Positions 2,561 to 32,978 of a stretch of DNA of 64,000 nucleotides are shown here, piece by piece. The stretch's first letter is position 1. Each line of letters starts with the position of its first letter. Under the pieces are notes generated by a model. It did not search any database. It saw only the letters and a program-made list of their open reading frames with translations, and was not told where the DNA came from. Source of the DNA: Sporopachydermia quercuum (taxonomy: Eukaryota); contig BCGN01000001.1 of assembly GCA_001599295.1 (NCBI GenBank), positions 1,240,001-1,304,000 on the forward strand, given 5' to 3'. A program made the translations under genes and the position numbers.

Positions 2561-4273
2561 TTAGGCTTTTGATTCATCAATTGAAGTGCTTGATGACTTT
2601 TCAATGAATTCATCCTTAACTTCGCCCTTAGGATTTGAAAAATCAATTTCTGGCACAGTGTTCTCGGTAAGACCTAGCTCCTCGTAGATTCTGGCCATTC
2701 TAGCATTATCAGCGGCACCAGTGCCGGAATCATCATGGAATAATTCATCAATTTCTTCTAAGGTTCTTCCCTTGGTTTCAGGAAGGAAGAACCATACGTA
2801 GAAAGCACTCAAGAACGAAATGATACCGAAGAAAATGTAAGCACCATAATGCATAGTCTTGAACATATCAGATGTAGCCATTGCAACAGCAAAGTTATTC
2901 AACCAATTTGAAGAGGCACCAATTGAAACACCCTTAGCACGAACACCAAGTGGGAAAACCTCAGAGACGACAATCCAAGCGCAAGGACCCCATGAGTAAC
3001 CGAAATTACAGACGAAAATCCAACAGAAGACGACAGCTACCCAACCGGCACCAGAATGATTATCAAAATCACCCCAGAAAGAACCAGCAATACCAGCATC
3101 AACGAATAAACAAACAGCCATACCCAGTGAACCAGCAATCAATGTCGGTTTTCTTCCCCAGCTGTCAACATACATAACAGTAGGAATAGTGAAGACAAAC
3201 ATACAAATACCGACGACACCAGAGGCTAACAGAGAGATAGAGCTTCCAGTCAATCCTAAATCCTGAAAAATAAATGCTGCATAATAAACGATACCATTGA
3301 CGCCAGACCATTGTTGGAACATCATAGTAAGAACGGCAACTAAGGTTCTCTTTCTTAAGCCTGGATGAACAAAAAGTCTCTTGTATGAGTTGTAACCTAA
3401 TAGGAAGTTTGATTTTCTTGAACCATCTTGATAATCGGGGAATAACTCTCTTGATGTTTCAAGATCGAAGATACGTTGCGCCTTAATTTCTAAAAATTCA
3501 ATTCTAATAGATTCATCGCTGATTGGGAGATTTCGAAGTCTAGCGATGGTCTCCAGGGCTTCTTCTTCAAGTCCTCTATTAACTAACCATCTTGGAGACT
3601 GGGGCATGAACATGATACCAACACCGAGGACGAATGCTGGAGCAATTTGAATACAAATAGGAATCAGCCAAGCAGCATTACTTTGTCCTTCTCCTGTTCC
3701 TCCAATGTAGTTAGTTCCGTAACCAATCCAGTACGAAACCATAATACCAAAAGTAATAGAAAGTTGTTGTAAAGCAACTAGAGCACCTCGAATTTCTGGG
3801 GGTGATAACTCAGCATTGTATAAAGGTACGATCATTGACAAGGAACCTACACCCAGACCAGTGACGAATCTACCTCCATAGATATAGTCAGCGTTTTGAG
3901 CACAGGCTTGTACAATTACACCCACAATGAAGACAACCACACCAACCACGGTACATAGTTTTCTACCAAGAGCATCTGCAAGATAACCATTTGCTAATAC
4001 ACCAACCCAGGCTCCCAGTTCCAAAATTGAAGTCAATAGACCTCTTGTGGTTGGATTGCTGATGTTTTCGACATGAATCCTTTGCTGGAAAGAATGCATA
4101 TTCATGATTTGACCAAACATACCTTGGTTATAACCATAAACAAAACCACCAAGGGATGCAAAAATTGCGATAGCGAAAACCTTAGCATTATTGAATAGAC
4201 CTTTGACACCTACTGGCTTGTCTCCCCTTTTACTAGCTAAGGCAGAGATTGGTTGTGAACTAACAGCAACCAT
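2561..4273 (-). CDS. MFS sugar porter, XUT1/XUT3-like putative pentose (xylose) transporter, copy A
   Basis: 570-aa multi-TM ORF with sugar-porter motifs (ADALGRK, PQSPRWL, QQWSGVN, VDSWGRK, PETKG). FASLGGFVYGYNQGMFGQI, GLLTSILELGAWVG and YGTNYIGGTG resemble Scheffersomyces stipitis Xut1 as I recall it. Substrate is inferred from family and neighbours. Confidence 0.9.
   Translation of the reverse strand: MVAVSSQPISALASKRGDKPVGVKGLFNNAKVFAIAIFASLGGFVYGYNQGMFGQIMNMHSFQQRIHVENISNPTTRGLLTSILELGAWVGVLANGYLADALGRKLCTVVGVVVFIVGVIVQACAQNADYIYGGRFVTGLGVGSLSMIVPLYNAELSPPEIRGALVALQQLSITFGIMVSYWIGYGTNYIGGTGEGQSNAAWLIPICIQIAPAFVLGVGIMFMPQSPRWLVNRGLEEEALETIARLRNLPISDESIRIEFLEIKAQRIFDLETSRELFPDYQDGSRKSNFLLGYNSYKRLFVHPGLRKRTLVAVLTMMFQQWSGVNGIVYYAAFIFQDLGLTGSSISLLASGVVGICMFVFTIPTVMYVDSWGRKPTLIAGSLGMAVCLFVDAGIAGSFWGDFDNHSGAGWVAVVFCWIFVCNFGYSWGPCAWIVVSEVFPLGVRAKGVSIGASSNWLNNFAVAMATSDMFKTMHYGAYIFFGIISFLSAFYVWFFLPETKGRTLEEIDELFHDDSGTGAADNARMARIYEELGLTENTVPEIDFSNPKGEVKDEFIEKSSSTSIDESKA
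3761..4048. repeat. 288-bp block identical to 8787-9074 (transporter paralogues)
   Basis: By-eye comparison shows a constant offset of 5026 and no mismatch. Further identical blocks are 3680-3741 = 8706-8767 and 4092-4165 = 9118-9191. Confidence 0.9.
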
Positions 4274-7589: not shown

Positions 7590-9305
7590 TTATGCTTTTT
7601 CATTAGCTTCGCTAGAATTGATACTGCCATTATCATGAGAAGTACTTGGCTTGACGCTGACGTTATAATATGAATCTGGTAAGGTATTTCCAACAAATCC
7701 CATTTCTTCCCAAATTCTAACCATTCTCGCAGCATCAGCAGCACCAATACCGGAATCATCTCTGAATAACATATCCATTTCTTCAAGAGTCTTATTCTTA
7801 GTTTCAGGAACAAAGAAAAAAATGTAGGCACCGCCTAATAGACAGAAGCAACCGAACCAAATGTAAGCACCATATCTCCATGAGGCAATCATATCAGAAG
7901 TTGACATTGCAACAACAAAGTTGTTCAACCAATTTGAAGAGGCACCAATTGAAACACCCTTTGCTCTGTAGGCCAATGGGAAAACTTCGGAAACGACAAC
8001 CCAAGCACAAGGACCCCATGAGTAACCGAAATTAACAACATAAATCCAAATGAATACAACAGCTACCCAACCGGCACCGGAATGATCGTCGAAAGAGTAC
8101 CAAAATGAACCAGAGATACCAGCAACAATAAAATGACAAATGGCCATACCAATAGAACCAGTGATCAGAGTCTTCTTCCTACCAAAATTATCAACAAACA
8201 GAACAGTTGGAATAGTAGCAAGGAAGTTAACAATACCGACAACACCAGAAGCTAACAAAGAAATGGTATTACCAGTTAATCCTAAATCTTGGAAAATAAA
8301 TGGTGCATAGTATAAAATAGCATTAATACCAGACCATTGTTGGAACAACATAGTAAGCACTGCAACTAAGGTTCTCTTTCTCAAACCAGGATGAACAAAC
8401 AATGCCTTGTAGTCGTTGTAACCAATCAAAAAGTTAGATCTTCTTGAACCATCTTGATAATCTGGATACTTTTCTCTTGCTGATTCAACGTCAAAAACAT
8501 GTTGAGCCTTCATTTCTAAAAATTCAATTTTAATTAATTCATCATCAGCCGACCTGTCTCTAAGGTAACAAATAGTGTCTAAAGCTTCTTGTTCACGGTT
8601 TTGGTCCATGAGCCATCTTGGAGATTGGGGCATAAACATAATACCAAAACCAAGGATCAATGCAGGAGCAATTTGAATACAAATAGGAATCAACCAAGCA
8701 GCATCACTTTGTCCTTCTCCTGTTCCTCCAATGTAGTTAGTTCCGTAACCAATCCAGTACGAAACCAGAATACCAAAAGTAATGGCAAGTTGTTGTAAAG
8801 CAACTAGAGCACCTCGAATTTCTGGGGGTGATAACTCAGCATTGTATAAAGGTACGATCATTGACAAGGAACCTACACCCAGACCAGTGACGAATCTACC
8901 TCCATAGATATAGTCAGCGTTTTGAGCACAGGCTTGTACAATTACACCCACAATGAAGACAACCACACCAACCACGGTACATAGTTTTCTACCAAGAGCA
9001 TCTGCAAGATAACCATTTGCTAATACACCAACCCAGGCTCCCAGTTCCAAAATTGAAGTCAATAGACCTCTTGTAGTGGGATCTCGGATCGTTTCAACGT
9101 CAATCTGNTGTTGAAAGGAATGCATATTCATGATTTGACCAAACATACCTTGGTTATAACCATAAACAAAACCACCAAGGGATGCAAAAATGGCAATAAG
9201 AGAAACTTTTTTGTTTGAAGCAAAAGCATGGAAGCCAACTTTTCCAGCAATAGCAGCCCGCTTGTCAGCAAGACCTTTCGGTAATGTGCCCTCTAATTCA
9301 GTCAT
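7590..9305 (-). CDS. MFS sugar porter, XUT1/XUT3-like putative pentose (xylose) transporter, copy B
   Basis: 571-aa tandem paralogue of 2561-4273 with the same motifs. The N-terminus KRAAIAGKVG resembles Xut1. It contains one ambiguous base (n). TATATAAA lies on the minus strand at 9543-9550. Confidence 0.9.
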   Translation of the reverse strand: MTELEGTLPKGLADKRAAIAGKVGFHAFASNKKVSLIAIFASLGGFVYGYNQGMFGQIMNMHSFQXQIDVETIRDPTTRGLLTSILELGAWVGVLANGYLADALGRKLCTVVGVVVFIVGVIVQACAQNADYIYGGRFVTGLGVGSLSMIVPLYNAELSPPEIRGALVALQQLAITFGILVSYWIGYGTNYIGGTGEGQSDAAWLIPICIQIAPALILGFGIMFMPQSPRWLMDQNREQEALDTICYLRDRSADDELIKIEFLEMKAQHVFDVESAREKYPDYQDGSRRSNFLIGYNDYKALFVHPGLRKRTLVAVLTMLFQQWSGINAILYYAPFIFQDLGLTGNTISLLASGVVGIVNFLATIPTVLFVDNFGRKKTLITGSIGMAICHFIVAGISGSFWYSFDDHSGAGWVAVVFIWIYVVNFGYSWGPCAWVVVSEVFPLAYRAKGVSIGASSNWLNNFVVAMSTSDMIASWRYGAYIWFGCFCLLGGAYIFFFVPETKNKTLEEMDMLFRDDSGIGAADAARMVRIWEEMGFVGNTLPDSYYNVSVKPSTSHDNGSINSSEANEKA

Positions 9306-15855: not shown

Positions 15856-16827
15856 ATGACTGCTGCTGAATCATACACAGTTCTTCCATCAGGATCTAAA
15901 ATGCCATTGATTGGCTTGGGTACTTGGAAGATCCCCACCGAAAAGGTCGCCGATACTGTCTACAACGCTATCAAAATTGGTTACCGTCTTTTTGATGGTG
16001 CTGAAGATTACGGCAACGAGAACTTATGCGGTGAAGGTGTCAAGAGAGCAATTGACGAAGGTATCGTTAAAAGAGAAGATCTGTTCATCACTTCCAAGTT
16101 ATGGAATACTTTTCACCATCCTGATCACGTCATTGATGCTTGTAAGAGATCTTTGGAAGATTGGGGCTTAGAATACTTTGATTTATTCTTGATTCATTTC
16201 CCCATTTCTTTGAAGTATGTTGATCCTGCAGTTAGATACCCTCCTGGCTGGAACTACGACGTTGAAAAAGGCACCATTGAATTCGAAGACGTTCCAATCA
16301 TTGATACCTGGAGAGCTATGGAGAAATTAGTTGAATTGGGGCTCGTCAAGAACATTGGTGTTTCTAACTTTTCTGGTGGTCTTCTTTATGACCTTATGAG
16401 ATCAGCTACTATCAAACCTGCTTCTTTACAAATTGAACACCATCCTTATTTAGTTCAAAAGCCTTTAGTTGATTACGCTTTAAAGAGTGGAATTGCTGTC
16501 ACTGGTTACTCCACTTTTGGACCTGCTTCTTACATTCAATTAGATCACGGTCAAGGTGTCGCCAGAGTTACTGAGTTGGAACCAATTAAGAAGATTGCTG
16601 AGAAATACAACAAGAGTCCTGCTCAAGTCGTCTTAAGATGGGCTACTCAAAGAGGTATTCATGTTAACCCCATGTCGACAACTGAGAAGTACTTAAAGGA
16701 GAATCTCAATACATTAGATTTCAACCTCACTGAAGAAGAATTATCAACAATCAGTGGTTATGATAGGAACTTCAGATTCAACGATCCTTATGACTGGCCA
16801 CCAACTGGTTTACCTATTTTTGTTTAA
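15856..16827 (+). CDS. XYL1: D-xylose reductase (aldo-keto reductase family 2B)
   Basis: 323 aa with AKR tetrad D47, Y52, K81 and H114. Xylose-reductase signatures are GYRLFDGAEDYGNE, LIHFPISLKYVDPAVRYPPGW, LQIEHHPYL, RFNDP and the C-terminal LPIFV. Confidence 0.93.
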   Translation: MTAAESYTVLPSGSKMPLIGLGTWKIPTEKVADTVYNAIKIGYRLFDGAEDYGNENLCGEGVKRAIDEGIVKREDLFITSKLWNTFHHPDHVIDACKRSLEDWGLEYFDLFLIHFPISLKYVDPAVRYPPGWNYDVEKGTIEFEDVPIIDTWRAMEKLVELGLVKNIGVSNFSGGLLYDLMRSATIKPASLQIEHHPYLVQKPLVDYALKSGIAVTGYSTFGPASYIQLDHGQGVARVTELEPIKKIAEKYNKSPAQVVLRWATQRGIHVNPMSTTEKYLKENLNTLDFNLTEEELSTISGYDRNFRFNDPYDWPPTGLPIFV

Positions 16828-17620
16828 AAAGGTAAATGAATTTTGGTGAGATTAATGAGTTTAGATAATACATACTTATAATACATACTTATAAATTAAA
16901 TGACATTTTATGATTATTTGATTAATTGAATGTAGAAAAATAGAGCAGTAGTCGATTAAACTGGGATCACCACAGGCAAGACAAGGAGGGAAACTTAGTT
17001 TTTCATTGTATTTGTGTTCAGGTGAAATTCTAAGAAACATATCATTAAGATGTGATTACGCTATGTTTATAATATGTTTACATGAATGATCATTCAACCA
17101 ATTTATATTTTCTGTATCCTATTTTCATCCCTTTTGCAATTTCAGAAATTCAAACGGATTATAAGTTCTGATAGCGAGTGCTAAAAACAGTAGGAGATGA
17201 ATGCATGACTTAAATTCTTGAATCCTTAGAGAGCTTGAATGTGATCTGACGTCTTAGAATGAAAAATCATACTACAGAATTTTTGTGTTCTACTTAAGTG
17301 CTATTAAAGATCTCATTATAGAATCATTTTACACGTTTGATGAACTTGTATTTGTTCTTAATCATTACGAAAGAAAGGAAGGAATGCCATCATATCATAA
17401 ACTCATNTCATCTCATCTCATCTCATCTGACCGTTGATCTAACAGACTCCAACAGATCACATACTTTTATAGTACTGACAGAAACTACGAATACGATCCT
17501 ACATCATACTCCATATTTTCATTCATTTATTCATATAAACAACTTATCTCATAAATACAAATAAATATATACGTACACATTACATACACATATCTCATCA
17601 TCTAATTCTATGCAACAAAT

Positions 17621-18688
17621 TTACTCAGGTCCATCAATGATAAGCTTAATAGCCTTTCCTTGTAGAACGGTCTTGAAGCCTTCTTCACATTCATCAAACT
17701 TGATTCTATGAGTGACAAGCTTTTTAACATCAATCTTACCAGAAGCAATTAATTCGACAGCACGTGGATAATCACCATCATAGTATCTGAATGAGCCCTT
17801 GAGAGTCAATTCCTTAGCAGCAACTTGAGCAATTGGGAAATTGACTTCATCTTTACCCATACCAGCTTGAACCATGACACCACCAGCTTTCAAAACATGG
17901 ACTGCAGCAGCAATTGAAGATTCAGCACCAGAACATTCCAAAGCAACGGTTGGCTTGAATCCGAGTTGAGCTTCAATCTTCTTAGCAGTTTCAACAGCGC
18001 TGTCATTCTTATCAACAACGTAACCATCAGTGGCGCCGAAATCTAAAGCAAACTTGACTCTGCTCTCAACGATATCAACAATTGCAACTCTGGTAGCACC
18101 ATAAGCCTTAGCTGTCGCAGCACATAATAAACCAATGGGACCAGCCCCGAATACAACGACTTTTGACCCAAAAGTGACGCCCGCAAGTCTATTAACGTGA
18201 ATACCAACTGATAGAGGTTCAACTAATGCACCCTCTTCTAATGAAACATTTTCTGGTAATTTAACACAGAAATCTTCCGGTAATAAATAAAATCTGGCTA
18301 ATGTTCCGTCATAAGGAGGAGTAGCAGCAAATGCCATATGAGGGCATAAGTTATATTTACCGGCTTTATATTCTTCAGAGTACCTTGATGGAATACCTGG
18401 TTCCATGGCGACTCTATCGCCAACTTTCAATGATGTAACTGCTGATCCAACTTCTGTGATAATACCTGCTGATTCATGACCAAGAACCATTGGTGCTTTA
18501 ACAATAAAATCACCAATTGATCCATGGGTATAGTAATGAACATCTGAACCGCAGATACCAGTCTTCTTCACTTCTACTTTAACATAGTGAGGATCCTTAA
18601 TTTCAGGAATTGGTCTATCTTCATAAGTTACATCATGAACCTTTTTAAGGACAAATGATGGATTTTTCATTGATTTGATATCGGTCAT
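17621..18688 (-). CDS. XYL2: NAD+-dependent xylitol dehydrogenase (MDR family)
   Basis: 355 aa. Catalytic Zn ligands are in CGSDVH and GHE, the Rossmann motif is GAGPIG, and VDIV carries the NAD-type Asp. EPGIPSRYSEEYKAGKYNLCPHMAFAATP lacks three structural-Zn cysteines, as in yeast Xyl2. Confidence 0.93.
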   Translation of the reverse strand: MTDIKSMKNPSFVLKKVHDVTYEDRPIPEIKDPHYVKVEVKKTGICGSDVHYYTHGSIGDFIVKAPMVLGHESAGIITEVGSAVTSLKVGDRVAMEPGIPSRYSEEYKAGKYNLCPHMAFAATPPYDGTLARFYLLPEDFCVKLPENVSLEEGALVEPLSVGIHVNRLAGVTFGSKVVVFGAGPIGLLCAATAKAYGATRVAIVDIVESRVKFALDFGATDGYVVDKNDSAVETAKKIEAQLGFKPTVALECSGAESSIAAAVHVLKAGGVMVQAGMGKDEVNFPIAQVAAKELTLKGSFRYYDGDYPRAVELIASGKIDVKKLVTHRIKFDECEEGFKTVLQGKAIKLIIDGPE

Positions 18689-20863
18689 TTTTAATAAGGA
18701 CTTTTAGTGATAATTATTCAGTTAGTAGGTTATTATTAGCAACTAAGCATTCGAACTACTAAGCAACAAACAATCGAATGAAGAGAACAATCAATTGACA
18801 ACCTAAGCGTAAAAATGTGGGAGAGACAGGTTTTTATGTTATTGAAATTGAAAATCTATCTCATACGAATAAGAGTTGAAAAAATTAATAAGGGAATTTC
18901 TTTCAATTGATGATGTGGTTCCAACTTGAGCTGTGAATGATAGATGATGTTATAGCTATCAGGCAGCATTCCTTTGTTCAGTATACTTTGATGTACGTAT
19001 GGGATAATAGGGAGAAATAGCAGGTTAAAATGTTTAATTTGTAGGTAGAGCTAATAAGATTCGGCATAGAGTGACTAAAACAAGTGAAGTTCAGAGTATA
19101 ATTGCCATTTTAATGTACTGATCGACTGTATAGAACAAGAGAAGTGGGTAAAATAAGGATGAGTTACTAGAAATGAATATGTTGGCTGGGTTAATTGATG
19201 TAATAGAAGGGAATAGATGGGGATGAGGATGTTATACTACACGGAACAATTGTTAGAACTGTAAATAGGAAATGATTACTTTGCTTCAGGTAGTTCCTTC
19301 CATTTTTTTCATTTCGAAGCAAAGTGCTACCGAATACTGTTTGAATAGTTTATGATGACGAAGAAGATAGGATGCACTTATTCTCATGTGGTTATACTGT
19401 AACCAACTAAACAAAGAAGTATCTTGTCTTCGTCATGAAATAAAACACGCCTGTTCTATTTTATTACTAACGAATTATCAGATGTTAATTCACTCTGTAT
19501 GAGAGATTTGGTTTTCTTCTTTTAGCTTCAACTTGTTACCTACGATCTCCTTCCCCGTTGCCAAATATCTTCTTGCCACACAATCAAACCAATATTCATC
19601 ATAAAACCAAGAAAATCAACGATGAATCCATTTTATCGATACATTTTCGATCATTTTGCTACCTCTTGAATGTATATTTTCTTCACAAATATCTCTTGTA
19701 TAAGTTGTTTTCCCACGCCTTGTTAGCAAACTTTAATAAGATAAGCCAAACCTTAATACCGGAGACAATGAGCTTTAGATATCGCTACAGTTTCTAGTTT
19801 GTGGAATGAGACGTGAAACTGTAATTACTTATTTTAGGCATACATCCGGATTATCTTTGTATAAACCCGACCCGAGAAACTTAGCTATATGTATATTTTT
19901 CATCCCTTCAAGCATGATTCTTTCTTTGCTCATTGATTCTTATCCTACGCGTTCTATAGAAACAAAAGCAAACACAAGTGATTCTATGAAAAACGAGAAT
20001 TCCGGGATAAATAACGGAGAAATTAAGCAAACATCATTCTTTATTTTTTTTCCTTATGTCAATATTATCCTACTTAAGTTGGACTGTAATACTCTATCCA
20101 CATCAACAATCATGTCATGTGTTCTATTCATCACCCACCCTCTAGAACCAACTGTAATCTCAACCCCAGAATTGAACCCCCTAGTCACTGAGCTACCCAA
20201 AAATTCGGGTGTTTCCAGGAAATAAAGCCTGGATTTTAAATTCAAATATCCACTCTTTTGATTCTCTGCTCACTTCCCTTCCTATGTTTCTTACCGTTAG
20301 TCATTTTCATTGACTTCGGAATATTTTATAAAGTTAAAGTTCAAGCTTGCCCGACAATCAATTTAATCAGGTTAAGACTTTTAGCCTGGTTGCTATTAAG
20401 GGTATAACTGTATATGGTTCGTTCTACGAGTAGCTATGAATATGTATTATCGGTACAACTAATTCCTANTGTTCTTTATATTTCGACTGGGAAAAGGATA
20501 ACTACCAATTTAAATGCTGGTTAATCCTTTCAATAGCTGCAGTTTCGAATCAGTCACGGAAAGATAGGAATAGCAAGCCAATTGAATATATACTTGGTTC
20601 GCTGAATAGTAACCTAATATGAAAACCAAAGCGATTGAAACTACAACAAGTACGAATGTATGAAGAATCAGTTTATTGGACTACATTCAATCAAAGAAAC
20701 TAGAAGGAAATTGATTGATATTGTTAATTCTTTCCAATTGAATTATCAACAACTTACCAATAATCTGCAAAAACCCTGCAATATTCTACAAAACTCTGCA
20801 CAACTTTCATACAAAATCTGCACATATCCGCACATATCCTGCATCAGAAATCCGTGACTCACG

Positions 20864-22609
20864 ATGACTGACCTCTTCCTTGGATTCGACTTATCAACGC
20901 AACAAATAAAAGCAGTTGTTGTTGATGAAAATCTAAAGCAATTCTATCAGAACTTTGTGGAATTTGATTCCGACACCCCAAGCTATAATGTGTCAAAAGG
21001 AGTCTATAAAAACTCAGCCGACAATTCAGTTTATGCTCCAGTTGCAATGTGGATAGATGCTTTAGAGATCCTATTAACCAAAATGAAAAATGATTCGTTC
21101 CCTTTCAATCGAGTGAAAGCTATCTCTGGAGCTTGTCAGCAACATGGATCTGTTTTCTGGTCAAAAGGNGCTGAAGAAATCCTCCATGATCTTAACCCAA
21201 ATGTGCCTTTGACTCCACAACTTTCTCCAAACGCTTTGGCTCATAAATATAGTCCTAATTGGCAAGATCATAGTACTCCTACTGAATGCGCTGAATTTGA
21301 AGCAGCCGTTGGTGGAGCCGAGGAATTATGCAAAATAACAGGCTCTAAAGCTCACCATAGATTCACTGGTCCTCAAATCCTCAAATTCAAAACTCAACAT
21401 CCTGATAGGTACGCTTCAACTTCTCGTATCGCTTTAGTATCATCATTCCTTACATCAATATTTCTAGGCAAACTTGCACCATTGGATATTTCCGATGTGT
21501 GCGGGATGAATCTATGGGATATTAAGAAATCTGAATGGTTGGATCCTATTATCACATTGACTGCTGGCTCTTCCGATGCGAGTATCAAGCAAGAATTGCT
21601 TGATAAATTAGGNCCAGTTGATAAATCACCAGAAAAATCATTAGGAACCATTTCCAAGTACTTTATCGAAAGATACGGATTCCCGGAAGACTGTGCTATA
21701 TCTAGTTTCACTGGTGACAATCCAGGAACTATTCTAGCTTTGCCTTTACAATCATCAGATCTGATGATATCTTTAGGTACATCAACAACTGTTCTATTAA
21801 CAACCGATCAATATGTTCCTAATGCATCATATCATGTATTTGGGCACCCTACAACTAAGGGTCTGTATATGGGTATGGTTTGCTACTGCAATGGTTCACT
21901 TGCAAGGGAGGAAGTTCGCAATGATATTAACAGTAAGTACAACATTAATGCTCCTCATCATTCGCCTATTAAATGGGAGAAGTTCAATCAGTTGGCTCTA
22001 TCAACACCAGCTTTTGGCAAAAAAAGTGGAGATTCACTTGCAAAGCTCGGAATTTATTTTCCATTAGCAGAAATAGTTCCAGATGCTGCTGCTGGTATTC
22101 ATCGTTATGAGTTTGACGACCAATCAAAGGATAAAGAATTCACTCTGGAAACAGATAATACATTGTGGAGTTTGCCTGATGATGATGCAAGAGCTATTAT
22201 TGAATCCCAAGCATTAAGCATGAGACTCCGAGCCGGCTCAATGCTTTCAGGAGAATCTGGCGATGCAAGACCCGGAAGATTGTTTTTCGTTGGAGGAGCA
22301 AGTAAGAATGAAGCTTTATGTAAAGTCATGTCTGAAGTTCTAGCCCCAAAACACGGTAGTTGGAGAGTTGAATTAGCAAATGCTTGTGCAACTGGTGCTG
22401 CCTATAAAGCAGCCTGGGTCGGATTATATAAACCTGGTTGGAGTTTTCAAGATATGATGAATGAGAAGTTTGATATGAATGAAGAAGGTCTCATTGCTAG
22501 AATTGACGGTGATGTTACCGATGAGCAAAGGCAGAATAATTGGAATACTTATGCTATTGGGGTTGAAGCTTTGGAGAAAGCTGAAGAATTATTACCGCAG
22601 AGTGTTTGA
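20864..22609 (+). CDS. XKS1: D-xylulokinase (FGGY family, eukaryotic type)
   Basis: 581 aa with LGFDLSTQQIK, ISGACQQHGSVFW, SPNWQDHST, GSKAHHRFTGPQI, FTGDNP, SLGTSTT, CYCNGSLARE and FVGGASKN. Also known as XYL3. Confidence 0.95.
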   Translation: MTDLFLGFDLSTQQIKAVVVDENLKQFYQNFVEFDSDTPSYNVSKGVYKNSADNSVYAPVAMWIDALEILLTKMKNDSFPFNRVKAISGACQQHGSVFWSKXAEEILHDLNPNVPLTPQLSPNALAHKYSPNWQDHSTPTECAEFEAAVGGAEELCKITGSKAHHRFTGPQILKFKTQHPDRYASTSRIALVSSFLTSIFLGKLAPLDISDVCGMNLWDIKKSEWLDPIITLTAGSSDASIKQELLDKLXPVDKSPEKSLGTISKYFIERYGFPEDCAISSFTGDNPGTILALPLQSSDLMISLGTSTTVLLTTDQYVPNASYHVFGHPTTKGLYMGMVCYCNGSLAREEVRNDINSKYNINAPHHSPIKWEKFNQLALSTPAFGKKSGDSLAKLGIYFPLAEIVPDAAAGIHRYEFDDQSKDKEFTLETDNTLWSLPDDDARAIIESQALSMRLRAGSMLSGESGDARPGRLFFVGGASKNEALCKVMSEVLAPKHGSWRVELANACATGAAYKAAWVGLYKPGWSFQDMMNEKFDMNEEGLIARIDGDVTDEQRQNNWNTYAIGVEALEKAEELLPQSV

Positions 22610-23959
22610 TTTATGAATTTAACAGCTTTACTTTGTTTTGGTTTCAAAGCATTATATTGAAAATGTATATAAGTATAAATATGAATATGAATATGAATAA
22701 GTAAAGTTATAAGTATAATAGATAATGAACTANTAGATAATGAACTGAATTATGATATAGGATATTACAGAGAAGAAAGTGCATGAGAAAAGTAGATAAC
22801 AGGGAGGGTTAGTTCTGTCCTTTTAATGTTCTTTTATTTTATGTTATCTCATTGTTTCTTACAACGTAGCACAATAGTACATATGTATGCTACATTCAGC
22901 ACCTTTAACGAGTAAATATCTGACTCTTTTACCTAAAAATTTCTAANCTATCTTATCAATAAATACATTAATACAAGAAATGAGTATTTGACTACTGATA
23001 CTTAAATGCTTTACATCGTTTCTGTGGTAGGCCCTCTGCGAGACAAAGTGCATCATGTAACTTGTTATTATGAAACAAAGGTAAAGCAGTAAGTGCAAAC
23101 ATAAGAAAAGGAATAAACAAACTCAAGAGAAAAGTAGATGATATAGAGCCTGATATTGTTTAAGGAGATGTAGTGAATCAAAACCATAGCTTGTTTCTCG
23201 AAAGAACAAAAATGTACTTCCCAGGCATTTAATCTCAGAAAAGGAGCATCCAACATCACCAACAAGCGCAGATATGCGGACATCTTGATGCATTAAAGGA
23301 TATGGATGGCTTTTGAATTAGTCAGTCTAGATGTTTTTATATCATTTAGTGGACAGTTTCAATAATAAGTGGCAAGTGCAGGGTGCAAAATCATAGAAAT
23401 GAATATGTCACAGGACCTTGGAAAATCACCATATAGAATTGTAAGGAAGTATGAAGATAAGGTATGTTGTTGAAAAGGAAAGAGCCAATAAAGGAATTGT
23501 CTGGGTCGGATTGGAATGGTTTAATGAATTGGCGATTGAAACGGTATTGATGAAATGATTCTGTTGAAATCAACCTGGAAATGAATTATCTTTGAAGTGT
23601 TTATGTTTCTCCTTACTTTATACATTTAAAACATGGTAACATAATCTAACCAAAACTTGAATAGAATCCTTCAAGCTCTGCTGAGGTAAATAGAGCCCGT
23701 CTCTCGTTTTCAAAATAGCATTTTTCCCATAGGGATTTCATAGATCTCATTATTCTCTTAATCTGGGTCAACTGATAGAACTTTTCACTGCATTGTTGTT
23801 ACATACTTTACTTTCATCTCCACAGTTCATCATTATTATATATTAGTTCTTATCTATATTACATTACACTCAACACCTTATGCCTATTAATTTTAAATAC
23901 TATCTACAAATACCCTCGCCAGTTTGGTCATCATATACCAAATATACCCTAGGCAGAAT

Positions 23960-26021
23960 CTAAGGCGCTATACCATATCCTCCACCAGTCCATCTATAAA
24001 CAGCCAAAGCTTCTTTCCGTTTTCTACTCAATTCTTCCTGTGATTCAGGGTCATTTGCATTTCCCACCGCAGCATTTGCATGCCTCAATGCTGCCCGCAT
24101 TATATTCCGTGATGTTCTCATATATTCTGCAGTCAAAGTTACAATACACACTTCATGAGCTCTTACTACAATTTCACATGCTCTCCTCATTTCATTCCCG
24201 AGTCCACTTCCGAGCCGATCGACCATATATAGTAGAATGGTACTTGCAGGAGAGAACAAATAAATTCCAGTGAAGAACGGCATAAGCCGAAGGTCGGAAT
24301 CAGTCGCCAGCACGGAATCCAAACATTCCGAAGCTTGAATTGCATGTGAAGACGCGATCCGAACTTCGGGCGAGTTCACCCATTCAGGCGGAGCATTCAA
24401 TAATTCTATCGGATCCCACGGAATGTTTAGTAGTATATGGAACACATGTACTAAATACATAGCATAGTCCTTCCAAGCTTCGGAATACTCCGAGAACACC
24501 ATTTCGCCGTTAATTGAACTCCGCGAATGCTCCTGCAAACGATTTGTTCTAGAAAAGCCTTTTAAAGATCTTGTATAGACTGCTAATTGGGTCTCTACCT
24601 GTGCTTTCACGTAATCACGATAATTCCTAGGTAACAATTGTACTGGCTGTTCACATAGTAAATGGGTAGTCACCATTCCCCCGAGAATCATCATTAAAGG
24701 TAAAAAAAATCCGAAAATGCCCTGGGATGATATACTAAACGAGATTCCGCAAGCTCGGGCCGAATCTTCTTCTGCCGGTTGTAAAGGGAACCGCGTTGAA
24801 TGATTCCATAAGGCATCGTCCTGAGGATGATAGAGATCTTTGCATTCAGCATCTAGTAGAGCTAAAGGCTGGTCGAAACAGAATCCTAAATGTCTGTCAA
24901 TCATATAAATGATCCACCAAGCTCTTCTTCTTTCTTCCCGAACTTCTTCGGGTAAAGTTGCAACTTCCATGTTAAGCTTGCTCTCACGTGCCAATCCTTG
25001 GGCTGTTTTCCACCATTTCATAGAAGCTCCTTTGAATTCTGAAGCCGANGCAACCGTCCCGAGCTGGATACACGTGATCACATCATCTAGTCCCGGTTCC
25101 ACTTCTGAGTTAGGCTGGTCTCTGTCCCGGCCAGGCTTGAACTTTTGGCCGAGCGATGAGTTTCTAGGATATCCTGCTTGTTGTAACGGAAGAGATAACT
25201 CTACCGCTAACTCAAACAGTTTAGTGGTGATAGCGTAATGATTAGACGGTACACATGTCAAATAGGGATGATGCGATCCGTGTACTGCTACCAACAATAA
25301 AGCACATAGTAGGGAAGCCGAAGTTGGTCTCGGATTCTCTTTGGACAGGATAGACGACTTACGTACAATGTATGCTAGTACATAAGGAGAATGGTCAAAA
25401 TATGACTCTAGAAGATCACACGCCACGTCCATCGGTAGAGAAATTTGGTCCAAATAAGGCAGCAGCGGCTCAAAAACCGGGTATCGCATATCTTGGCCAG
25501 CGTTCCGTGTACCGGGAGACGAAGAAGTAACCGACCCGTTAGTATCTGGAGGGTTATTTGCCGACATAATTGAATTCGAGCTATTAGGTTGAGGAATATT
25601 AGTGGATGATTGTGGGCCGTTTGGGGTTCCCGAGTTTAATGATGCCGTTGGTTGTTTTGTATTTATTGCAAATGACGACTTATGCCGAGATCCATACCGA
25701 ATAGAGTTTGCTTGAGCAGCTGAGCCGGAAATTGATCCGTATTGATCTACTGGGGGTGCGTACCGTAGACCAGGGTCATTTACTAAATCCATCATTGAGG
25801 ACCCGAAAGCTTCCGAGTTCTGTAAGTCCGTTGCATTTGGAGTTCNGCCGGATATAGCATAGAACGGAGATGGTAGATTCGGGTCGGTTAACATGTCGGT
25901 TGAATCACGCGGCGTTCGGCCTGTTCGATCCACATTGAATAGAAAAGAATCCATCTCATCTGGACCATTCGAAATCGAAACTTGCGATTGCTGTGCTTGT
26001 TGTGCTTGTTGGTGCTGATGG

Positions 26022-26052
<31 letters not shown>

Positions 26053-26788
26053 GATTGGTGAGTTGGCCGGAAGTCATTCGAGAAGAAGCGGAGGATCCCG
26101 GAGATAGAAAGCTTGATTGTGATTCTGGAGAGCCTTTCGGGTCGGAGATCAATTCCATTAAAAGATTATTTGGCATTTGCTGATTTGACTCTATTGGTAA
26201 CCCTGGGTTATCTGGACCTTGAGCCGAACCCATTGACTGACCGGTACCAGTTTGAAGTTTATGAACTCCGTTCAATCCAACACGATCCGCAGGTGGTAGG
26301 CCCATATCGGCAGCAACTGGAACGCTTCCCGAGGTATTTCCAGCAAGCAAACCTTGAGGTATTGAGGCAACACCAGTCATTGGAGCTACAGCTCCTCTAT
26401 CCGATTTCTCTTTCATTTCTTTTTCCTTTTGCTGTTGCAACAACATTGCTTGACGTTTACTAGTGTAAGATTCCGAAGCTCTGCCCCTCTTCCGAGGTTC
26501 TCGTGAATATTCGCATTTGATTTTAACTCTTACACAGTGATGACAAGGAAATGCACCATCACATTTCGTTCTCCGTTGGTTACATTGATCACATGCTCTA
26601 GCCACGCGCTTTGACTTTTTTGGTTTCGGCACATCCGAAGAAAACAAATCCATAGGTTCATCTGATCTCTCCGGAGACCTCGGCTTATTTTCATTCCCCA
26701 TCGAGTTCTCTCCACCTTGGCTTTCGATTTGACCTGATCCTGTCCCAGAAGACATGCCAGGAACTGATGCGCTCATATCGAAGGACAT
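23960..26788 (-). CDS. xlnR: XlnR/Xyr1-like Zn2Cys6 xylanolytic / pentose-catabolism transcriptional activator
   Basis: 942 aa, no intron needed. The zinc cluster [22 protein letters not shown]...[81 protein letters not shown] and C-terminal [11 protein letters not shown] are all XlnR/AraR-family signatures. Confidence 0.88.
26024..26053 (-). repeat. (CAA)10 microsatellite encoding poly-Gln in XlnR
   Basis: Ten uninterrupted TTG triplets on the + strand, within a Q/H-rich segment. Confidence 0.95.
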
Positions 26789-29063
26789 TCAGTTGTTTAA
26801 ACGGTAAAACAGAGGCATGATATTCCGATAAATAGCAGCAGATATCAATTTTTTTTTCAGTGATTGTATTGACTTATCGGTATTTCTCAAATATGCTTTC
26901 TCTTGTGTTCCGCGTTTCGTGTTCCGTGTTCCCTTATGTTCCCTTAATTCACGCTCTATTATTGTACGTGCAAAACTTGTATAGTCCTATTCTGTATCTT
27001 CTATAGCACACAGGGCAAGTCGGCGAAACCGAAACAAGATAATCTTGTTTATATGTTTACGAAATTACCTATTGTCAATTGCCGTTCATTAGCTCGTTCA
27101 TAAACGATTCCTTCCGTTGTCTTTTATTTCGTACGCTGTTCCGAGAGGTGAAAAAAAGCGGGAGAAACAGGTGTTTTGCTTATATGGGGAGAAAAGCCAT
27201 GTAGAGAGTCAGATGAGTAGCCTGATGAAATGGGACATGAGGCCTAGGGGGCTATTAGAGGAAGGTAAGTAAAGGACTAGAGTCACAATATATTAGGGCC
27301 AGAGGTTCGGGAAATTACTTTTGCTGGGGAAAAAGTGGAGAAAAGGGAAGGAGAATAACGAGAAAAACAAGGGGTACAAAAGAGAAAATATTTCATCACG
27401 TGATACGTAAAAAGAGGGGGCTTCACGAGCGAATTAGAGATGAGAGATATTTATGCCAGAATAGGCAGATATATGCAGAAAAATATGCTGGTGTACTAAG
27501 GACTCTGGAATACGGCAAGTATAGAGGAGAGTAGGTAGTCAAACCAAGAAAGAAGTGTGGTGAATGATAGATTATAGAATATTAAGGATAGAAAGAAAGG
27601 AGAAATAAATCAAATCAGAAAATTCATCAGGCATTTGAGGTGTTGTTGTTTGATATACTAAAGTTGAAGCTGGGGGTGGAGTTGGCAACAAAATGAGGAT
27701 TTACACAACGAGTTGTAGTGTATAATGGTAAACAAACTGCTTTATTTATCATGAACAGTGAATTGAACTTATATGAGAAGGCAAAAAAATACAATTTCAT
27801 GTCATACGAGGAGTTGATAGCGGATATTCAACTATGAAAGCTCAACAAATGATCAGAAGTACGATCACCTAATATACGTAAGATAGGAGTAGATAGATAT
27901 CCAGCTGTACATCGGATACTCCTTCAATGGTCACTTTCCCTTCATTGACATATCTCAGTCTTAATTTTATCTTGCAAGTTTCCATTTATACTATCGACAG
28001 GTTGGCCAGACAGTACTTTAGATTTGATGCGATAAGACAGGAAAGTAATAATCAATCCTGATTTACAAAGTTGTCGAAGCTAGAATAAGATTCTAACTTT
28101 AGTCAGGAACCGAAACTCAAACACTGGCGACAATTCATACAAAAATAGTAATATTTGATAAAGTTTAACTAAACTACTCTAAAATCGAAACGTTAACTTT
28201 CCAATCAATAACTCAGACTCAGCACACATTATAGCAATTCGACCAAAAAGCATGTTACTATCTTCCTGTATGGTTTATTATCATGATACTTGCTCACGAA
28301 ATTCAATTGTTGGAATTCCACAGAATAACTTCATCAAATGATAACCTTGTTAAAATGACTCTTTGCAAGCTCAAGCCACTCGAAAAATGCATTATGTTTC
28401 AAAAAATTGTCAATTTGGGTACATAATAGACGTTTAAATCAACTTAGTACTGTGAATTCTTTCTCAGAAATATTATAGGAATTTCGTTATAATGAAAACT
28501 CAAAGTAATAACGTTACTGTTAAAAATTTATCCTCTCACCGTTTTCCCTTTTTCAGACTGAATGCTTTCTATCGGAGTTTCCTAGTTTATCATTTTTTGC
28601 TGCAGGGGAGGTATTCGCTTATTCATTAATATGGTATTTCATCGGGATAGACCATAATATTTCTATTACTTACTCCATTTCTTTAGCTATTCAAATGTGA
28701 GGAGTAGGTTGTTATTCAAACCGGCGCTTACTTTTCGTTTATGATATACTAATTAATACTATCAGTCTTTCCAAAATGTATCGGGTTAAAAGAATATCTT
28801 TTCCATGTAACAAAGACTTATAAATAACATCAGCATCCTTTCAAATAACTTACAACATAATTACGAAATACTTTTTAGCATACGTCTGTTTTCTTTTTTT
28901 CTTTCTTTTTTTGTTTTCAACTAAAATCATTAGAAATTGAGCTGGATAGAGAAACTTCAATAGATATTTTATATCTTTTACTGTTTTCACGGACTCCCAA
29001 AAGTTCATTACTACTTTGTAGTTCAATGAAAGGAAAAAGAAACCTCAATAATCATTCACAACA

Positions 29064-30482
29064 ATGTCTAGTCCCGCTAAGGTTTATTACCCTTATGAGC
29101 CTGCTGCTCCTAAGATGATCACCTCTTATCCTCCTCCGAAATCTAGTCAAGCAATTGAGGATTTGAAGGAAGTATTTCCAAGTCACATCTCTCAAATTGT
29201 GGTTGATTACAAGAAATCAAATGGCAATTACCTTGTTGATGTTGACGGAAATACTTATCTAGATGTTTATGCTCAAATTGCATCAATAGCTCTTGGATAT
29301 AACAATCCTGCTTTAGAAGCAGCTGCCAAGTCGGAGGAAATGATTCAAGCCATTATTGATCGACCTGCAACTGCTCATTATCCTCCTGATTACTATAAAG
29401 ACATAATTAAGGATGGATTATTGGCAGCTCATCCTCAAGGACAAGACAAAGTCTGGTGCACTTTTTCGGGATCTGATGCTAATGATCATTGTTTCAAAGC
29501 TGCTTTCATTTACTACAAGGCGAAACAAAGAGGTCATAAGGCTTTGATTAGTGCTGAAGAAGCAAATTCTTGCTTAGAAAACTCTGAACCTGGTTCCCCC
29601 GAGCTTGCGGTNTTATCTTTCAAGAAATCCTTCCATGGTAGGCTTTTTGGTTCCGGTTCTGCTTCAAGAGCTCAAGTTTTACATAAGTTGGATATACCAG
29701 CTTTCAAGTGGCCACGAGCTATTTTCCCCAATTTAAAGTATCCCTTAGAAAAGTATGCTAAGGAAAATGCTGAAGAAGAAGCTTTGAGATTAAAGGAAGT
29801 TGAGGAAATCTTCAAGACTTGGGATTGCCCAATTGCGGCTTTGATTGTTGAACCTATTTTGTCAGAAGGTGGAGACCTTCATGCTTCCAACAGCTTCTAT
29901 CAAGGACTAAGAGATATTACTATCAAATTTGGAGCTTCATTAATTATCGATGAAGTTCAAACTGGCTTTGGTGCTACTGGTAAATTATGGGCTCACGAAC
30001 ATTTCAATATTACTCCTCCACCTGATTTTGTTACATTTTCAAAGAAAGCTCAAGCTGCTGGTTATTACTATCATGACCCACTAGCTTTGCCTGACAAAGT
30101 GTTCCGCATCTTTAACACTTGGGTCGGTGATCCTGTTAGAGCTATTATTGGTGGTGCTATATATAGAGAAATTGCTAGCAAAGGGTTAGTAGAACATACA
30201 AAGAGAGTTGGCGAATACATCTATGGAAAGCTTGAAGGTTTACAAGATAAATATAGTGATAAGCTCTTCAATTTGAGAGGTAAAGATAGAGGAACATTTA
30301 TTGCATTTGATTTGTCTTCTCCTGAAAAGAGAGATGAATTTATTCTTAGAGCTAAGGGTAAAGGATTAAACATTGGTGGTTGTGGTACTGAATCTATTAG
30401 ACTAAGACCAACTTTGACTTTCGATGAGTCGCATGCTGATATTCTTCTTCCACTTGTTGAAGAGCTTTTGACTGAATTATAA
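29064..30482 (+). CDS. 4-aminobutyrate aminotransferase-like class III PLP aminotransferase (Uga1/Pyd4 family)
   Basis: 472 aa with GNYLVDVDGNTYLDVYAQIASIALGYNNP, FHGR, SEGGD, IDEVQTG, TFSKK (PLP lysine), FNTW and RLRP. Several family motifs have diverged, so orthology to UGA1 is not asserted. Confidence 0.88.
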   Translation: MSSPAKVYYPYEPAAPKMITSYPPPKSSQAIEDLKEVFPSHISQIVVDYKKSNGNYLVDVDGNTYLDVYAQIASIALGYNNPALEAAAKSEEMIQAIIDRPATAHYPPDYYKDIIKDGLLAAHPQGQDKVWCTFSGSDANDHCFKAAFIYYKAKQRGHKALISAEEANSCLENSEPGSPELAXLSFKKSFHGRLFGSGSASRAQVLHKLDIPAFKWPRAIFPNLKYPLEKYAKENAEEEALRLKEVEEIFKTWDCPIAALIVEPILSEGGDLHASNSFYQGLRDITIKFGASLIIDEVQTGFGATGKLWAHEHFNITPPPDFVTFSKKAQAAGYYYHDPLALPDKVFRIFNTWVGDPVRAIIGGAIYREIASKGLVEHTKRVGEYIYGKLEGLQDKYSDKLFNLRGKDRGTFIAFDLSSPEKRDEFILRAKGKGLNIGGCGTESIRLRPTLTFDESHADILLPLVEELLTEL

Positions 30483-30929: not shown

Positions 30930-32978
30930 CTAAGCTTTTCCAATTATTTCAGTGTTAACAACTTCAACATCATCGCTCAAACTATCTGATTCCATAATAA
31001 CTGCATCTTCTTTCTCATTTTCTTTACCGACCATGGTGTAATCTAATCCCTTAATGTCATAGATTATCTTCTTGAAAACCGTTGGAATTGCCACTCTACC
31101 ATTCCATAATGGCAATAATGTGATCACCAAAGTTGCAAAGAAAGCCCAAATAAATACGACAACAATCCAACCAACAAAGAAAGATTTTGAAAAAATGTAT
31201 CTAGTTCCATATAATGGCATTGGGAAAACAACCAAGAAGAATAAGATAAAGATCGCTGATACAACCATGGCTCTATTTCTAGCGATCTTGACTTTCTTAT
31301 CTTCGGCAATTGCAATGGTAATAGCAGTTAATTCTTCAGCAGTGTGAAGTTCCCTAGCACCATGTTCCTTATCAAACTCTGAATCATCATTTTGTTTGAT
31401 ATCTCTCCAGATTTGGAAGTCAAAGTCATCTGGTTTTATGTAGGCAAACAAAGGTGTAAGGATTAATGGTAAACCAACAGCAAAGACATTACCTGCTGCT
31501 AATGCTTCCATGGTTGACAAAGTTGCTAAGGTAACAATACCTGATTGATGATAAGTATAGCCAATCCATAATGCTAAAGCAGCACAAGTTGAGATTGTAG
31601 TTGAAAGGCAGAAAGAAAAAGCTGACATTTTTCTCCAAGTGATAGTCAAGACCATTGGAACTACGCAAGGTCCAACAACAATACCAGCAACAGTAGTAAT
31701 GAATGAAACACTGAAACCAGCATGAGCAAGACCAATTGCTAATCCAACGACAAAAACACCAAAGGAGATAACGGAAATATGTCCAACTTTCACTAAGGTC
31801 TTACCGGTAGCGTTGGGGTTAATATAAGCTTGGTAAATATCATAAGTAGCTAATGCAGAAACGGCGACAGCTTCAGAAGAGAAAGCAGATGTTGTGGCCA
31901 TGAAAACCATAACTAAGACAGCTCCGGCACCACCTGTTCCCATCAATGTAATAGCAGCATAAGGCATGACCATACCTGCGTCAATTTCTTCTGCTGTCAT
32001 TAAATTGGGATATGTGACAAAAGAAGGTGATGTTTCTAACCCACGTGCAGCCAAACCGAGGGTAGATGCTAAACAGAAAGGAATGGTAAACCAGCAAATA
32101 CCACCTAGAACATAGCCACCGAATGTGGAAACTGGATTTGCAGCAATGGCCTTTTGGAATAAAGCAGAATCAACTGTGTAGGCCCAGCCTGCTCCAATAT
32201 TCACTAAACCAAACAAACCTGCTTGTCTTGATGTCATTGTCAATAAAGATCCTTGGTAATTACCAGCAACAGGTCTTTCTTCAGAGGCAACTTTCAACAT
32301 TTCCCATAAAACACCGGGAGATCCAATCAAATCACTTGTACAATAGACAACAAATAAGAACATTAACATACAGAAGTAAATGATAATTGTATGCATCCAA
32401 TCGGTAACAAAGGTTGCTTTGATACCACCGAGCATTGTATAAATCAGAACTCCAATAGGTAGTAGAACAATGGATGCATCTCTGTTAACACCAGTGAGGT
32501 TACTGAAAATCGATGAACCATTAATAAGTAAATTTGCTGAAGCAGTAATTTGTTGAATCAAGGAGTAAGTACACATCAAAATATGAGTAGTTGGACCAAA
32601 TCTCAATCTTAAAGCTTCCTGAAAAGTATGGCAATTTGGAGCTTTTCTTTTCAATTCAATACACACAGTAGCAAACATAATGATTTGAACGCAAGCACCA
32701 GCTCCGTACCACCAAGGGGCAGCAATACCATAAGAAAATGCAACTGTACAAGATAATAACAAGGTTGCACCAATAGTCCATTGAGAAACGCAAGCAGAGG
32801 CAATTAATCCTGCACCAACACTTCTTTTAGCAGTCATTTGCATTTCCGAATCTTGAATTTCTGACATATATCGTGACAATAACCACGAGATACCGACCAT
32901 GATAATTGCAAATGCTGCACCAACACCGACGATGATCCCATAGCCAACGCCTGAGTCATAAATTGGCATTTCAATCAT
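30930..32978 (-). CDS. DUR3-like urea/polyamine transporter (sodium:solute symporter family)
   Basis: About 680-aa polytopic protein with GVGYGIIVGVG, TAKRSVGAGLIAS, WYGAGA, ELKRKAPNCHT, GGIKATFVTDWMHT, WFTIPF, YDIYQAYINPNATG and YIFSKSFF. The first ATG is at 32978 (alternative 32969); the ORF-track start at 32984 is TTG. Confidence 0.88.
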   Translation of the reverse strand: MIEMPIYDSGVGYGIIVGVGAAFAIIMVGISWLLSRYMSEIQDSEMQMTAKRSVGAGLIASACVSQWTIGATLLLSCTVAFSYGIAAPWWYGAGACVQIIMFATVCIELKRKAPNCHTFQEALRLRFGPTTHILMCTYSLIQQITASANLLINGSSIFSNLTGVNRDASIVLLPIGVLIYTMLGGIKATFVTDWMHTIIIYFCMLMFLFVVYCTSDLIGSPGVLWEMLKVASEERPVAGNYQGSLLTMTSRQAGLFGLVNIGAGWAYTVDSALFQKAIAANPVSTFGGYVLGGICWFTIPFCLASTLGLAARGLETSPSFVTYPNLMTAEEIDAGMVMPYAAITLMGTGGAGAVLVMVFMATTSAFSSEAVAVSALATYDIYQAYINPNATGKTLVKVGHISVISFGVFVVGLAIGLAHAGFSVSFITTVAGIVVGPCVVPMVLTITWRKMSAFSFCLSTTISTCAALALWIGYTYHQSGIVTLATLSTMEALAAGNVFAVGLPLILTPLFAYIKPDDFDFQIWRDIKQNDDSEFDKEHGARELHTAEELTAITIAIAEDKKVKIARNRAMVVSAIFILFFLVVFPMPLYGTRYIFSKSFFVGWIVVVFIWAFFATLVITLLPLWNGRVAIPTVFKKIIYDIKGLDYTMVGKENEKEDAVIMESDSLSDDVEVVNTEIIGKA

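Follow-up and report, generated by a model that had tools for sequence, protein, structure and literature searches.

The 64,000-nucleotide stretch of Sporopachydermia quercuum DNA analysed here (contig BCGN01000001.1, positions 1,240,001 to 1,304,000 of the forward strand; hereafter the window) is AT-rich, with a GC content of about 0.35 and isolated single N bases throughout, and holds the gene of a zinc-cluster transcription factor of the XlnR/XYR1/AraR family (hereafter the regulator) beside a set of xylose genes. XYL1, XYL2, XKS1 and two sugar transporter genes all lie within 24 kilobases (kb) on the 3' side of the regulator, and since Pfam recognises a class-III aminotransferase and then an SSF-family transporter next on its 5' side, the regulator forms one edge of the xylose set. 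The features are listed with positions counted from the first letter of the window (aa, amino acids; bp, base pairs; E, expect value):

23960..26788, minus strand: gene of the XlnR/AraR-family Zn2Cys6 transcription factor, 942 codons plus stop, no intron needed
26489..26599, minus strand: Zn2Cys6 DNA-binding cluster, aa 64-100 (Pfam), with the XlnR/XYR1 signature and one change, L to R
26005..26062, minus strand: CAG/CAA poly-glutamine tract in the low-complexity linker, where public contigs end
23966..25492, minus strand: conserved regulatory region, aa 433-941, including Fungal_trans and the C-terminal tail, colinear with XYR1 322-919
26789..29063, no strand: upstream region of the regulator, divergent with the aminotransferase gene, with four SYGGRG motifs within 1 kb of the ATG and zero canonical XlnR sites
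22610..23959, no strand: convergent spacer of 1,350 bp from the XKS1 stop to the regulator stop, zero matches in Pfam and Rfam
20864..22609, plus strand: xylulokinase (XKS1/XYL3), putative target (Pfam, named matches, PDB, tree)
17621..18688, minus strand: xylitol dehydrogenase (XYL2), putative target (PDB 7y9p, E 1.5e-107)
15856..16827, plus strand: xylose reductase (XYL1), putative target (PDB 5z6t, E 5e-113; 1jez, E 7e-109)
7590..9305, minus strand: sugar transporter (Sugar_tr, Pfam) paralogue 2, putative target, GGCTAA about 510 bp upstream
2561..4273, minus strand: sugar transporter (Sugar_tr, Pfam) paralogue 1, putative target, CGGCTAAT about 550 bp upstream

The frame of the regulator is open for 942 aa from the first ATG to the stop, and because the stop-to-stop frame has identical limits, no intron is needed; two X residues in the translation are due to single N bases at 25049 and 25846. 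Pfam detected a Zn_clus domain at aa 64-100 (E 3.4e-08) and a Fungal_trans domain at aa 596-706 (E 5.7e-08), while the linker of aa 101-432 is of low complexity, rich in Ser/Gly/Pro/Gln and interrupted by a poly-Q run. In BLASTP against Trichoderma reesei XYR1 (P0243, named 'xylanase regulator 1 [Trichoderma reesei QM6a]'; a further hit, P0074, represents the T. reesei XYR1 cluster), aa 433-941 aligned to residues 322-919 (36% identical residues, E 9e-102), with a separate alignment of the DNA-binding domain at aa 60-117. The tail of the protein agrees with the family C-terminal motif YRWTG.G.GLA. An earlier note on this locus, made from the letters alone, had described a full-length, intronless XlnR-family protein lying tail-to-tail with XKS1, and this description is upheld by the open frame, the XYR1 alignment and the convergent xylulokinase gene.

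A word-seeded search with aa 440-942 returned 132 matches at E <=1e-3 among 7,504 candidates. The top ones, at 38-43% identity, came from Trichomonascus, Geotrichum, Tortispora, Lipomyces and Dipodascopsis and were followed by Pezizomycotina proteins, several of which bear the names xylanolytic activator or xlnR; a sequence named GalR was not found among the matches from the searches run. In an exhaustive phmmer search of 1.84 billion representatives, 1,383 proteins were found at E <=1e-3 and 200 at <=1e-30, all ten top scores belonging to the yeast clade described below, and Blastobotrys adeninivorans ARAD1B09636p stands in the cluster of one member of this branch (P0019). A PDB sequence search gave matches limited to the zinc-cluster domains of PUT3, LAC9 and Pho7, and an Atlas search with aa 581-942 returned generic Fungal_trans clusters only.

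The placement of the regulator was followed in four trees: a FastTree tree of 121 rows (i); a FastTree tree of 239 rows combining the word-search matches, phmmer representatives of at least 550 aa and six named cluster members, with rows below 550 aa excluded (ii); an IQ-TREE tree under a site-mixture model of 68 selected rows, three of which, distant and long-branched, served as outgroup (iii); and a tree under the same model of 38 rows, obtained by leaving out this outgroup along with near-duplicates and the longest rows, and rooted on the Savitreella group (iv). In all four, the regulator lies outside the Pezizomycotina clade with XYR1 and the AraR-like group, and in three of them it falls inside a branch made up of budding yeasts only. 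Tree (ii) puts it inside the ingroup of 235 of the 239 rows and within a 76-row clade (support 99), the named members of which are Lipomyces, Dipodascopsis, Tortispora, Trichomonascus and Geotrichum only, thus Lipomycetales, Trigonopsidales and Dipodascales. The same ingroup holds a 152-row Pezizomycotina clade with XYR1, the 'xylanolytic activators' of Alternaria and an Aspergillus/Monascus clade of proteins of about 830 aa, as well as a 7-row clade with the Taphrinomycotina yeast Savitreella. The Aspergillus/Monascus proteins, whose zinc cluster starts at aa 36-37, are taken as AraR because their length and cluster position resemble Aspergillus niger AraR (832 aa, zinc cluster at aa 32-73; PMC6486530); this label is our own assignment, and no source names those proteins AraR. 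In tree (iv), support is 100 for the yeast clade as well as for the Pezizomycotina clade, and the regulator joins Tortispora and one Dipodascales group at 85.

Within the yeast clade two paralogue groups exist, each with Lipomycetales and Dipodascales members, so that the duplication must be old in yeasts. As the Pezizomycotina paralogues arose within their own clade, the regulator is co-orthologous to XlnR and AraR together. An identity with XlnR proper was accordingly rejected, its branch lying outside the whole Pezizomycotina clade, and so was an identity with AraR, the regulator standing outside the Aspergillus/Monascus clade in trees (ii), (iii) and (iv). The stretch following the zinc cluster reads RASESY in the regulator, KASQ[ST]Y in the Dipodascales group and KASRKD in XYR1 and in Pezizomycetes/Orbilia, and the likeness of the first two agrees with the position of the regulator in the tree. 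With the zinc-cluster signature (one change), the Fungal_trans domain, the end-to-end colinearity with XYR1 and the placement inside the family tree, the regulator is, with high confidence, a family member of the yeast branch. The label 'filamentous-fungus-type' given in the earlier note has thus to be dropped, the protein belonging to a budding-yeast sister branch with more than 70 public sequences and not to XlnR/XYR1. Grouping with AraR, which the same note had named among what would speak against its proposal, was not found either: in the trees with XYR1 and the AraR-like clade, the regulator stands outside both, in three of the four inside the budding-yeast clade.

Conservation was compared with 64 relatives. 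Of 85 columns with an identity of 90% or more in these relatives, the regulator retains 72 (median relative 82, lowest 64), and three accepted family members retain fewer. Nine of the regulator's 13 departures stay within the hydrophobic residues (L to F or I, A to V, F to V), and the protein still has the full set of six zinc-cluster cysteines as well as the family signature and the C-terminal tail. The equivalent of XYR1 A824 is a Ser, which is uninformative because Ser also occurs in 12 of the 64 relatives. Judged by its sequence, the gene looks functional, yet ranks among the more derived members of the family.

The host is a budding-yeast lineage without close annotated relative. In an exact look-up in a collection of 15 billion proteins, none of eight window proteins was present, and the YME1 protein of the host reaches at most 72% identity to anything in the collection, its best named matches being later-branching yeasts (Pachysolen, Cyberlindnera, Ascoidea, Candida albicans, Lachancea). 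On this evidence, the 'early-diverging' host supposed in the earlier note is not borne out; a single-gene tree of YME1 showed a long host branch and did not resolve the position of the host. CTG was read as Leu because two of the five CTG codons fall where 14 of 14 homologues carry Leu. In a quick LG+G4 tree of 32 rows chosen from 120 matches, XKS1 joins Tortispora, Sugiyamaella and Trichomonascus at a support of 92, with Lipomycetales and Pezizomycotina separate (99 each). Its sister there is P0480, an NCBI-sourced xylulokinase on an 11.6-kb contig with 57% identity to the XKS1 of the window, which may come from the nearest sampled relative of the host. The placements of XKS1 and of the regulator are concordant, both lying with Tortispora and Dipodascales sequences. 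Of the two origins that the earlier note had left side by side, vertical retention and horizontal gain, the former is thus favoured by the trees and by XKS1, and vertical descent of the regulator within Saccharomycotina appears likely from these sequences.

The gene set beside the regulator is well identified. XKS1, for instance, has named xylulose kinase matches at 45-57% identity and matches PDB 4bc2 at E 2.8e-95. Three public assemblies, stemming from two studies, each have a contig of 11,280 bases that matches 14771-26004 with zero differences and takes in XYL1, XYL2, XKS1 and most of the regulator, so that the adjacency of the regulator and XKS1 is not an artefactual join in the window; these assemblies possibly include the window's own source and are therefore not an independent confirmation of this adjacency. 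A look-up of RNA runs returned none that contains the stretch.

Taken as a whole, the locus is best explained, with somewhat better than even chances, by a functional, vertically inherited member of the yeast branch that activates the adjoining xylose genes. The part of this reading that concerns function, namely that the regulator would be a pentose-responsive activator of its neighbours in analogy to its mould relatives, is put at even odds. The N-terminal zinc cluster would bind a GG-N-TAA-like site, the glutamine-rich linker together with the C-terminal region would activate transcription, and the large C-terminal regulatory domain would keep the protein inactive until a pentose signal arrives. 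The likeliest targets would be XYL1, XYL2, XKS1 and the two transporter genes, which are proposed because these gene classes are controlled by XlnR, AraR and XLR-1 in moulds. Inducer, DNA site and target set are what we infer for the regulator, and control of the adjoining genes would follow from its family and its position. A bolder version of the same reading, in which an ancient yeast co-orthologue of XlnR with an altered recognition residue and its own DNA site would serve as the pentose-sensing activator of a self-contained 24-kb xylose module, is offered tentatively and is rather doubtful.

Several results weigh against activation of the adjoining genes by a vertically inherited regulator, and they concern its placement, its linkage in relatives and its binding sites. 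The regulator forms a long branch (0.86-1.7 changes per site), and in tree (iii), with the distant outgroup, it is basal to the whole family (support 89), the clade of Pezizomycotina and Taphrinomycotina excluding it at 100; the basal placement is read as long-branch attraction, the regulator (branch length 1.08) being drawn to the very long outgroup. In the approximately unbiased (AU) test, forcing the regulator together with 14 Pezizomycotina rows, a group named only after tree inspection, cost 27.7 log-likelihood units (p-AU 0.075), so that a Pezizomycotina placement is disfavoured, yet not formally rejected. Linkage was scanned on metagenome contigs from JGI, which gave 80 loci with family members (873 kb in total, 1.5-22.8 kb each). 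The tblastn queries were both transporters, XYL1, XYL2 and XKS1 together with the aminotransferase and SSF proteins of the window. At E 1e-10, 0 of the 80 loci gave a match to the xylose genes, and at E 1e-3 one weak alcohol-dehydrogenase match appeared (locus L060). Four of the 80 are intronless, yeast-like loci: the two Geotrichum candidum paralogues have near-identical counterparts in L001 and L004, L002 belongs to the Dipodascales group and L003 to the Taphrinomycotina-like clade. The genes flanking L001-L003 encode Rad21, Vma12, nitronate monooxygenase, Nup159, a proteasome subunit and a GTPase, and among the reading frames tested no other was found on the flanks of L004 (<0.7 kb). L001, L002 and L004 carry zero xylose genes on their flanks, which are short in these yeast-like loci (0.1-5 kb). 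Because of these housekeeping flanks and the 80 loci, linkage of the regulator with xylose genes is, as far as seen, not a general trait of the family. The position at the edge of a complete xylose set appears unusual for the family and makes the regulator the obvious candidate for control of this set.

As to the binding sites, in Gal4-type clusters the stretch between the second and third cysteines contacts DNA. At the variable position of this stretch the regulator and the AraR-like clade have R and XlnR has L, and therefore the DNA site may differ from GGCTAA. Promoter tests compared 1 kb upstream of six cluster genes with that of eleven other genes in the window. GGCTAA is not enriched in the 64-kb window (17 seen, 22 expected), the hexamers GGCTAA, GGCTGA and GGCTAG average 0.5 per cluster promoter against 0.55 in the others (p 0.62), and zero canonical XlnR hexamers occur within 1 kb upstream of XYL1, XYL2 and the regulator. 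A single GGCTAA, as a predicted site, lies 483-555 bp upstream of XKS1 and of both transporter genes, the two transporter sites not being independent because these genes are paralogues. The relaxed core GGNTAA was four times denser in the cluster promoters (19 vs 8, p 0.006); however, four of ten scrambled motifs reached p <0.02 and the intergenic densities were equal (1.66 vs 1.59 per kb), so that this enrichment was discarded as non-specific, and enrichments of GGDTAA and GGNTAAA likewise failed the scrambled controls. A CGG-pair spacing common to the cluster promoters was not found.

Besides, the CreA/Mig1-type motif SYGGRG occurs 12 times in the six cluster promoters and five times in the eleven others (permutation p 0.015), with 5.5 and 9.4 expected from shuffles, respectively, and the contrast was matched by five of 119 scrambled controls. 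Four of these motifs precede the regulator, as close pairs at -893/-887 and -552/-541. This excess gives a weak hint that fits common glucose repression and is not evidence of control by the regulator. As a separate observation, the 8-mer GGGAAGGA occurs six times in the window (1.1 expected), at 4953, 10204, 19548, 27345, 59137 and 61650, and the two transporter genes, XYL2 and the regulator each have one copy 560-900 bp upstream; the 8-mer was chosen post hoc from a k-mer screen, and no longer shared motif surrounds the copies.

The regulator could also be a genuine family member with another signal or regulon, e.g., L-arabinose or polyols as for AraR, or secreted hemicellulases encoded elsewhere in the genome, in which case its position would add little. 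This is unlikely. In its favour, XlnR and AraR have themselves diverged in inducer and targets (PMC6486530), two paralogue groups are usual among the budding yeasts of the branch, the regulator and the AraR-like clade have the same R at the variable recognition position, canonical XlnR sites are not enriched at the cluster and the yeast relatives with visible flanks are not placed beside xylose genes. Nevertheless, the regulator stands outside the AraR-like clade in all trees, and AraR also drives xdhA and xkiA (PMC6486530), so that even an AraR-like role would cover two of the neighbours. Moreover, five functionally coherent genes within 24 kb of the regulator are, as an unquantified judgement, unlikely to have gathered there by chance.

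Likewise, the regulator, perhaps with the whole cluster, might have been acquired horizontally, the donor being either a filamentous ascomycete or a yeast of an early-branching lineage, for instance one of the Dipodascales. The unrejected Pezizomycotina placement in the AU test (p 0.075) agrees with such a gain, and so does the contrast between YME1, nearest to later-branching yeasts, and the regulator and XKS1, nearest to Tortispora, Dipodascales and Lipomycetales. Named later-branching yeasts are absent from the family matches. In addition, the GC content at third codon positions (GC3) of the regulator is the highest among 17 open reading frames (ORFs) measured (0.371 vs 0.293 +/- 0.031 for the other 16). 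Still, this excess is small and nearly equalled by XYL1 (0.361), the closest potential donor is only 42-48% identical, and the free trees place the regulator in the yeast clade at supports of 99-100. The placement of regulator and XKS1 also fits a position in the species tree after Lipomycetales, and the YME1 contrast may be an artefact because the host lineage is long-branched and itself unplaced. A horizontal gain is accordingly judged improbable. That the gene is a relic losing its function is very improbable: its long terminal branch and the loss of 13 of the 85 highly conserved columns would suit a decaying gene, but 942 codons have remained open, cysteines, signature and tail are in place, most of the changes (9/13) are hydrophobic swaps and three accepted members have kept fewer of these columns. 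Activation of the neighbouring xylose genes by an inherited yeast-branch regulator remains the preferred reading.

The regulator can be compared with known systems. In Neurospora crassa, chromatin immunoprecipitation sequencing (ChIP-seq) peaks of XLR-1 were found at xyr-1, xdh, xk and a xylose transporter gene, with the motif GGNTAAA (PMC4620465), and these bound classes, i.e., xylose reductase, xylitol dehydrogenase, xylulokinase and xylose transporter, are those of the regulator's neighbours. In Aspergillus, XlnR and AraR induce pentose catabolic genes (PMC8601170, PMC6486530), AraR also controlling xdhA and xkiA (PMC6486530). Published sites comprise GGCTAA, GGCTGA and GGCTAG, alternatively CGGNTAAW (XlnR) and CGGDTAAW (AraR) (PMC6323846, PMC8601170, PMC6486530). 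With XlnR, XYR1 and XLR-1, the regulator shares the domain order, a near-identical zinc-cluster signature, 36% identity over the regulatory region and the YRWTG.G.G tail; it differs from them by its place in the yeast sister branch, the missing intron, the poly-Q linker and the R for L. It is further clustered with its putative targets, unlike the family members in the 80 metagenome loci, none of which is arranged in this way. The AraR of Eurotiales resembles it in family and in the R at the variable recognition position, and the neighbours of the regulator include equivalents of the AraR targets xdhA and xkiA; in contrast, the regulator stands outside the Aspergillus/Monascus clade of about 830 aa. 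The homologues of the yeast branch (B. adeninivorans ARAD1B09636p and those of Tortispora caseinolytica, Trichomonascus, G. candidum, Lipomyces and Dipodascopsis) agree with it in clade, identity (37-48%) and architecture and are equally intronless wherever the gene was seen, whereas two Geotrichum-like loci and one Dipodascales-like locus lack xylose genes on their short flanks. A published function for these homologues was not found. The arrangement itself recalls the GALLAC cluster of Candida intermedia, with LAC9, GAL1, GAL10 and XYL1 in one locus (PMC11497787), and the L-rhamnose cluster, which carries RhaR (PMC5674754). Both combine pathway genes and a zinc-cluster activator at one locus, but they involve other regulator families and other sugars, and the role of the activator there was proven by deletion.

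XlnR homologues were stated to be absent from Saccharomycotina in section 3.5 of a 2026 paper (PMC12969433). As far as sequences can tell, public protein data contradict this claimed absence, a whole yeast branch of the family being present. In the literature searched, which left subscription journals and supplements outside its coverage, no report of a budding-yeast member of the XlnR family and no description of clustered XYL1, XYL2 and XYL3 with a regulator were found, nor was a named activator of these three genes in any xylose-using budding yeast. The terms 'cluster', 'synten' and 'transcription factor' are absent from PMC10263009, and passages of PMC2784038 treat XYL1, XYL2 and XYL3 merely as co-induced. 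With the regulator, the XlnR/XYR1/AraR family gains a member that is new, intact and rather derived and whose arrangement is unreported in the literature searched. From the yeast branch it follows that the family is older than the separation of budding yeasts and filamentous ascomycetes and was later lost in the familiar yeasts.

Saccharomyces cerevisiae engineered for xylose is not known to sense this sugar as a fermentable one. A regulator beside every pathway gene is a concrete and cheaply testable candidate for a native xylose switch. If the bolder reading of a self-contained module is true, the regulator would be the first native activator of the XYL genes to be identified in a budding yeast, within a subphylum said in the 2026 paper to lack the family, and would offer a portable xylose-responsive switch for engineering.

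Some further features of the window are noted here. The segment of 6.5 kb between transporter 2 and XYL1 (9306-15855) contains zero ORFs of at least 100 codons and is unusually long for an intergenic region of a yeast; seven ORFs of 70-99 codons in it gave zero Pfam matches, and Rfam matches are likewise zero there. At 14600-14778, a short contig in three of three public assemblies bridges the sequence while omitting 177 bases, and the word depth is doubled in 14534-15067, so that a repeat or a variant in length may lie some 1.1-1.3 kb upstream of XYL1. A total of 13 small gap ORFs were tested with zero Pfam matches, an Rfam scan of window positions 1-30000 gave zero matches, no tRNA genes were found in the window, and two larger ORFs (52050-53195, 381 codons; 50023-50775, 250 codons) had zero Pfam matches. 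On the 5' side of the regulator, the class-III aminotransferase gene (29064-30482) and the sodium:solute symporter gene (30930-32978) converge and possibly belong together as a nitrogen-related pair. At the opposite end of the xylose set, the two transporter genes lie on one strand, their products being 77% identical over 533 residues with long identical runs, and look like a tandem duplication.

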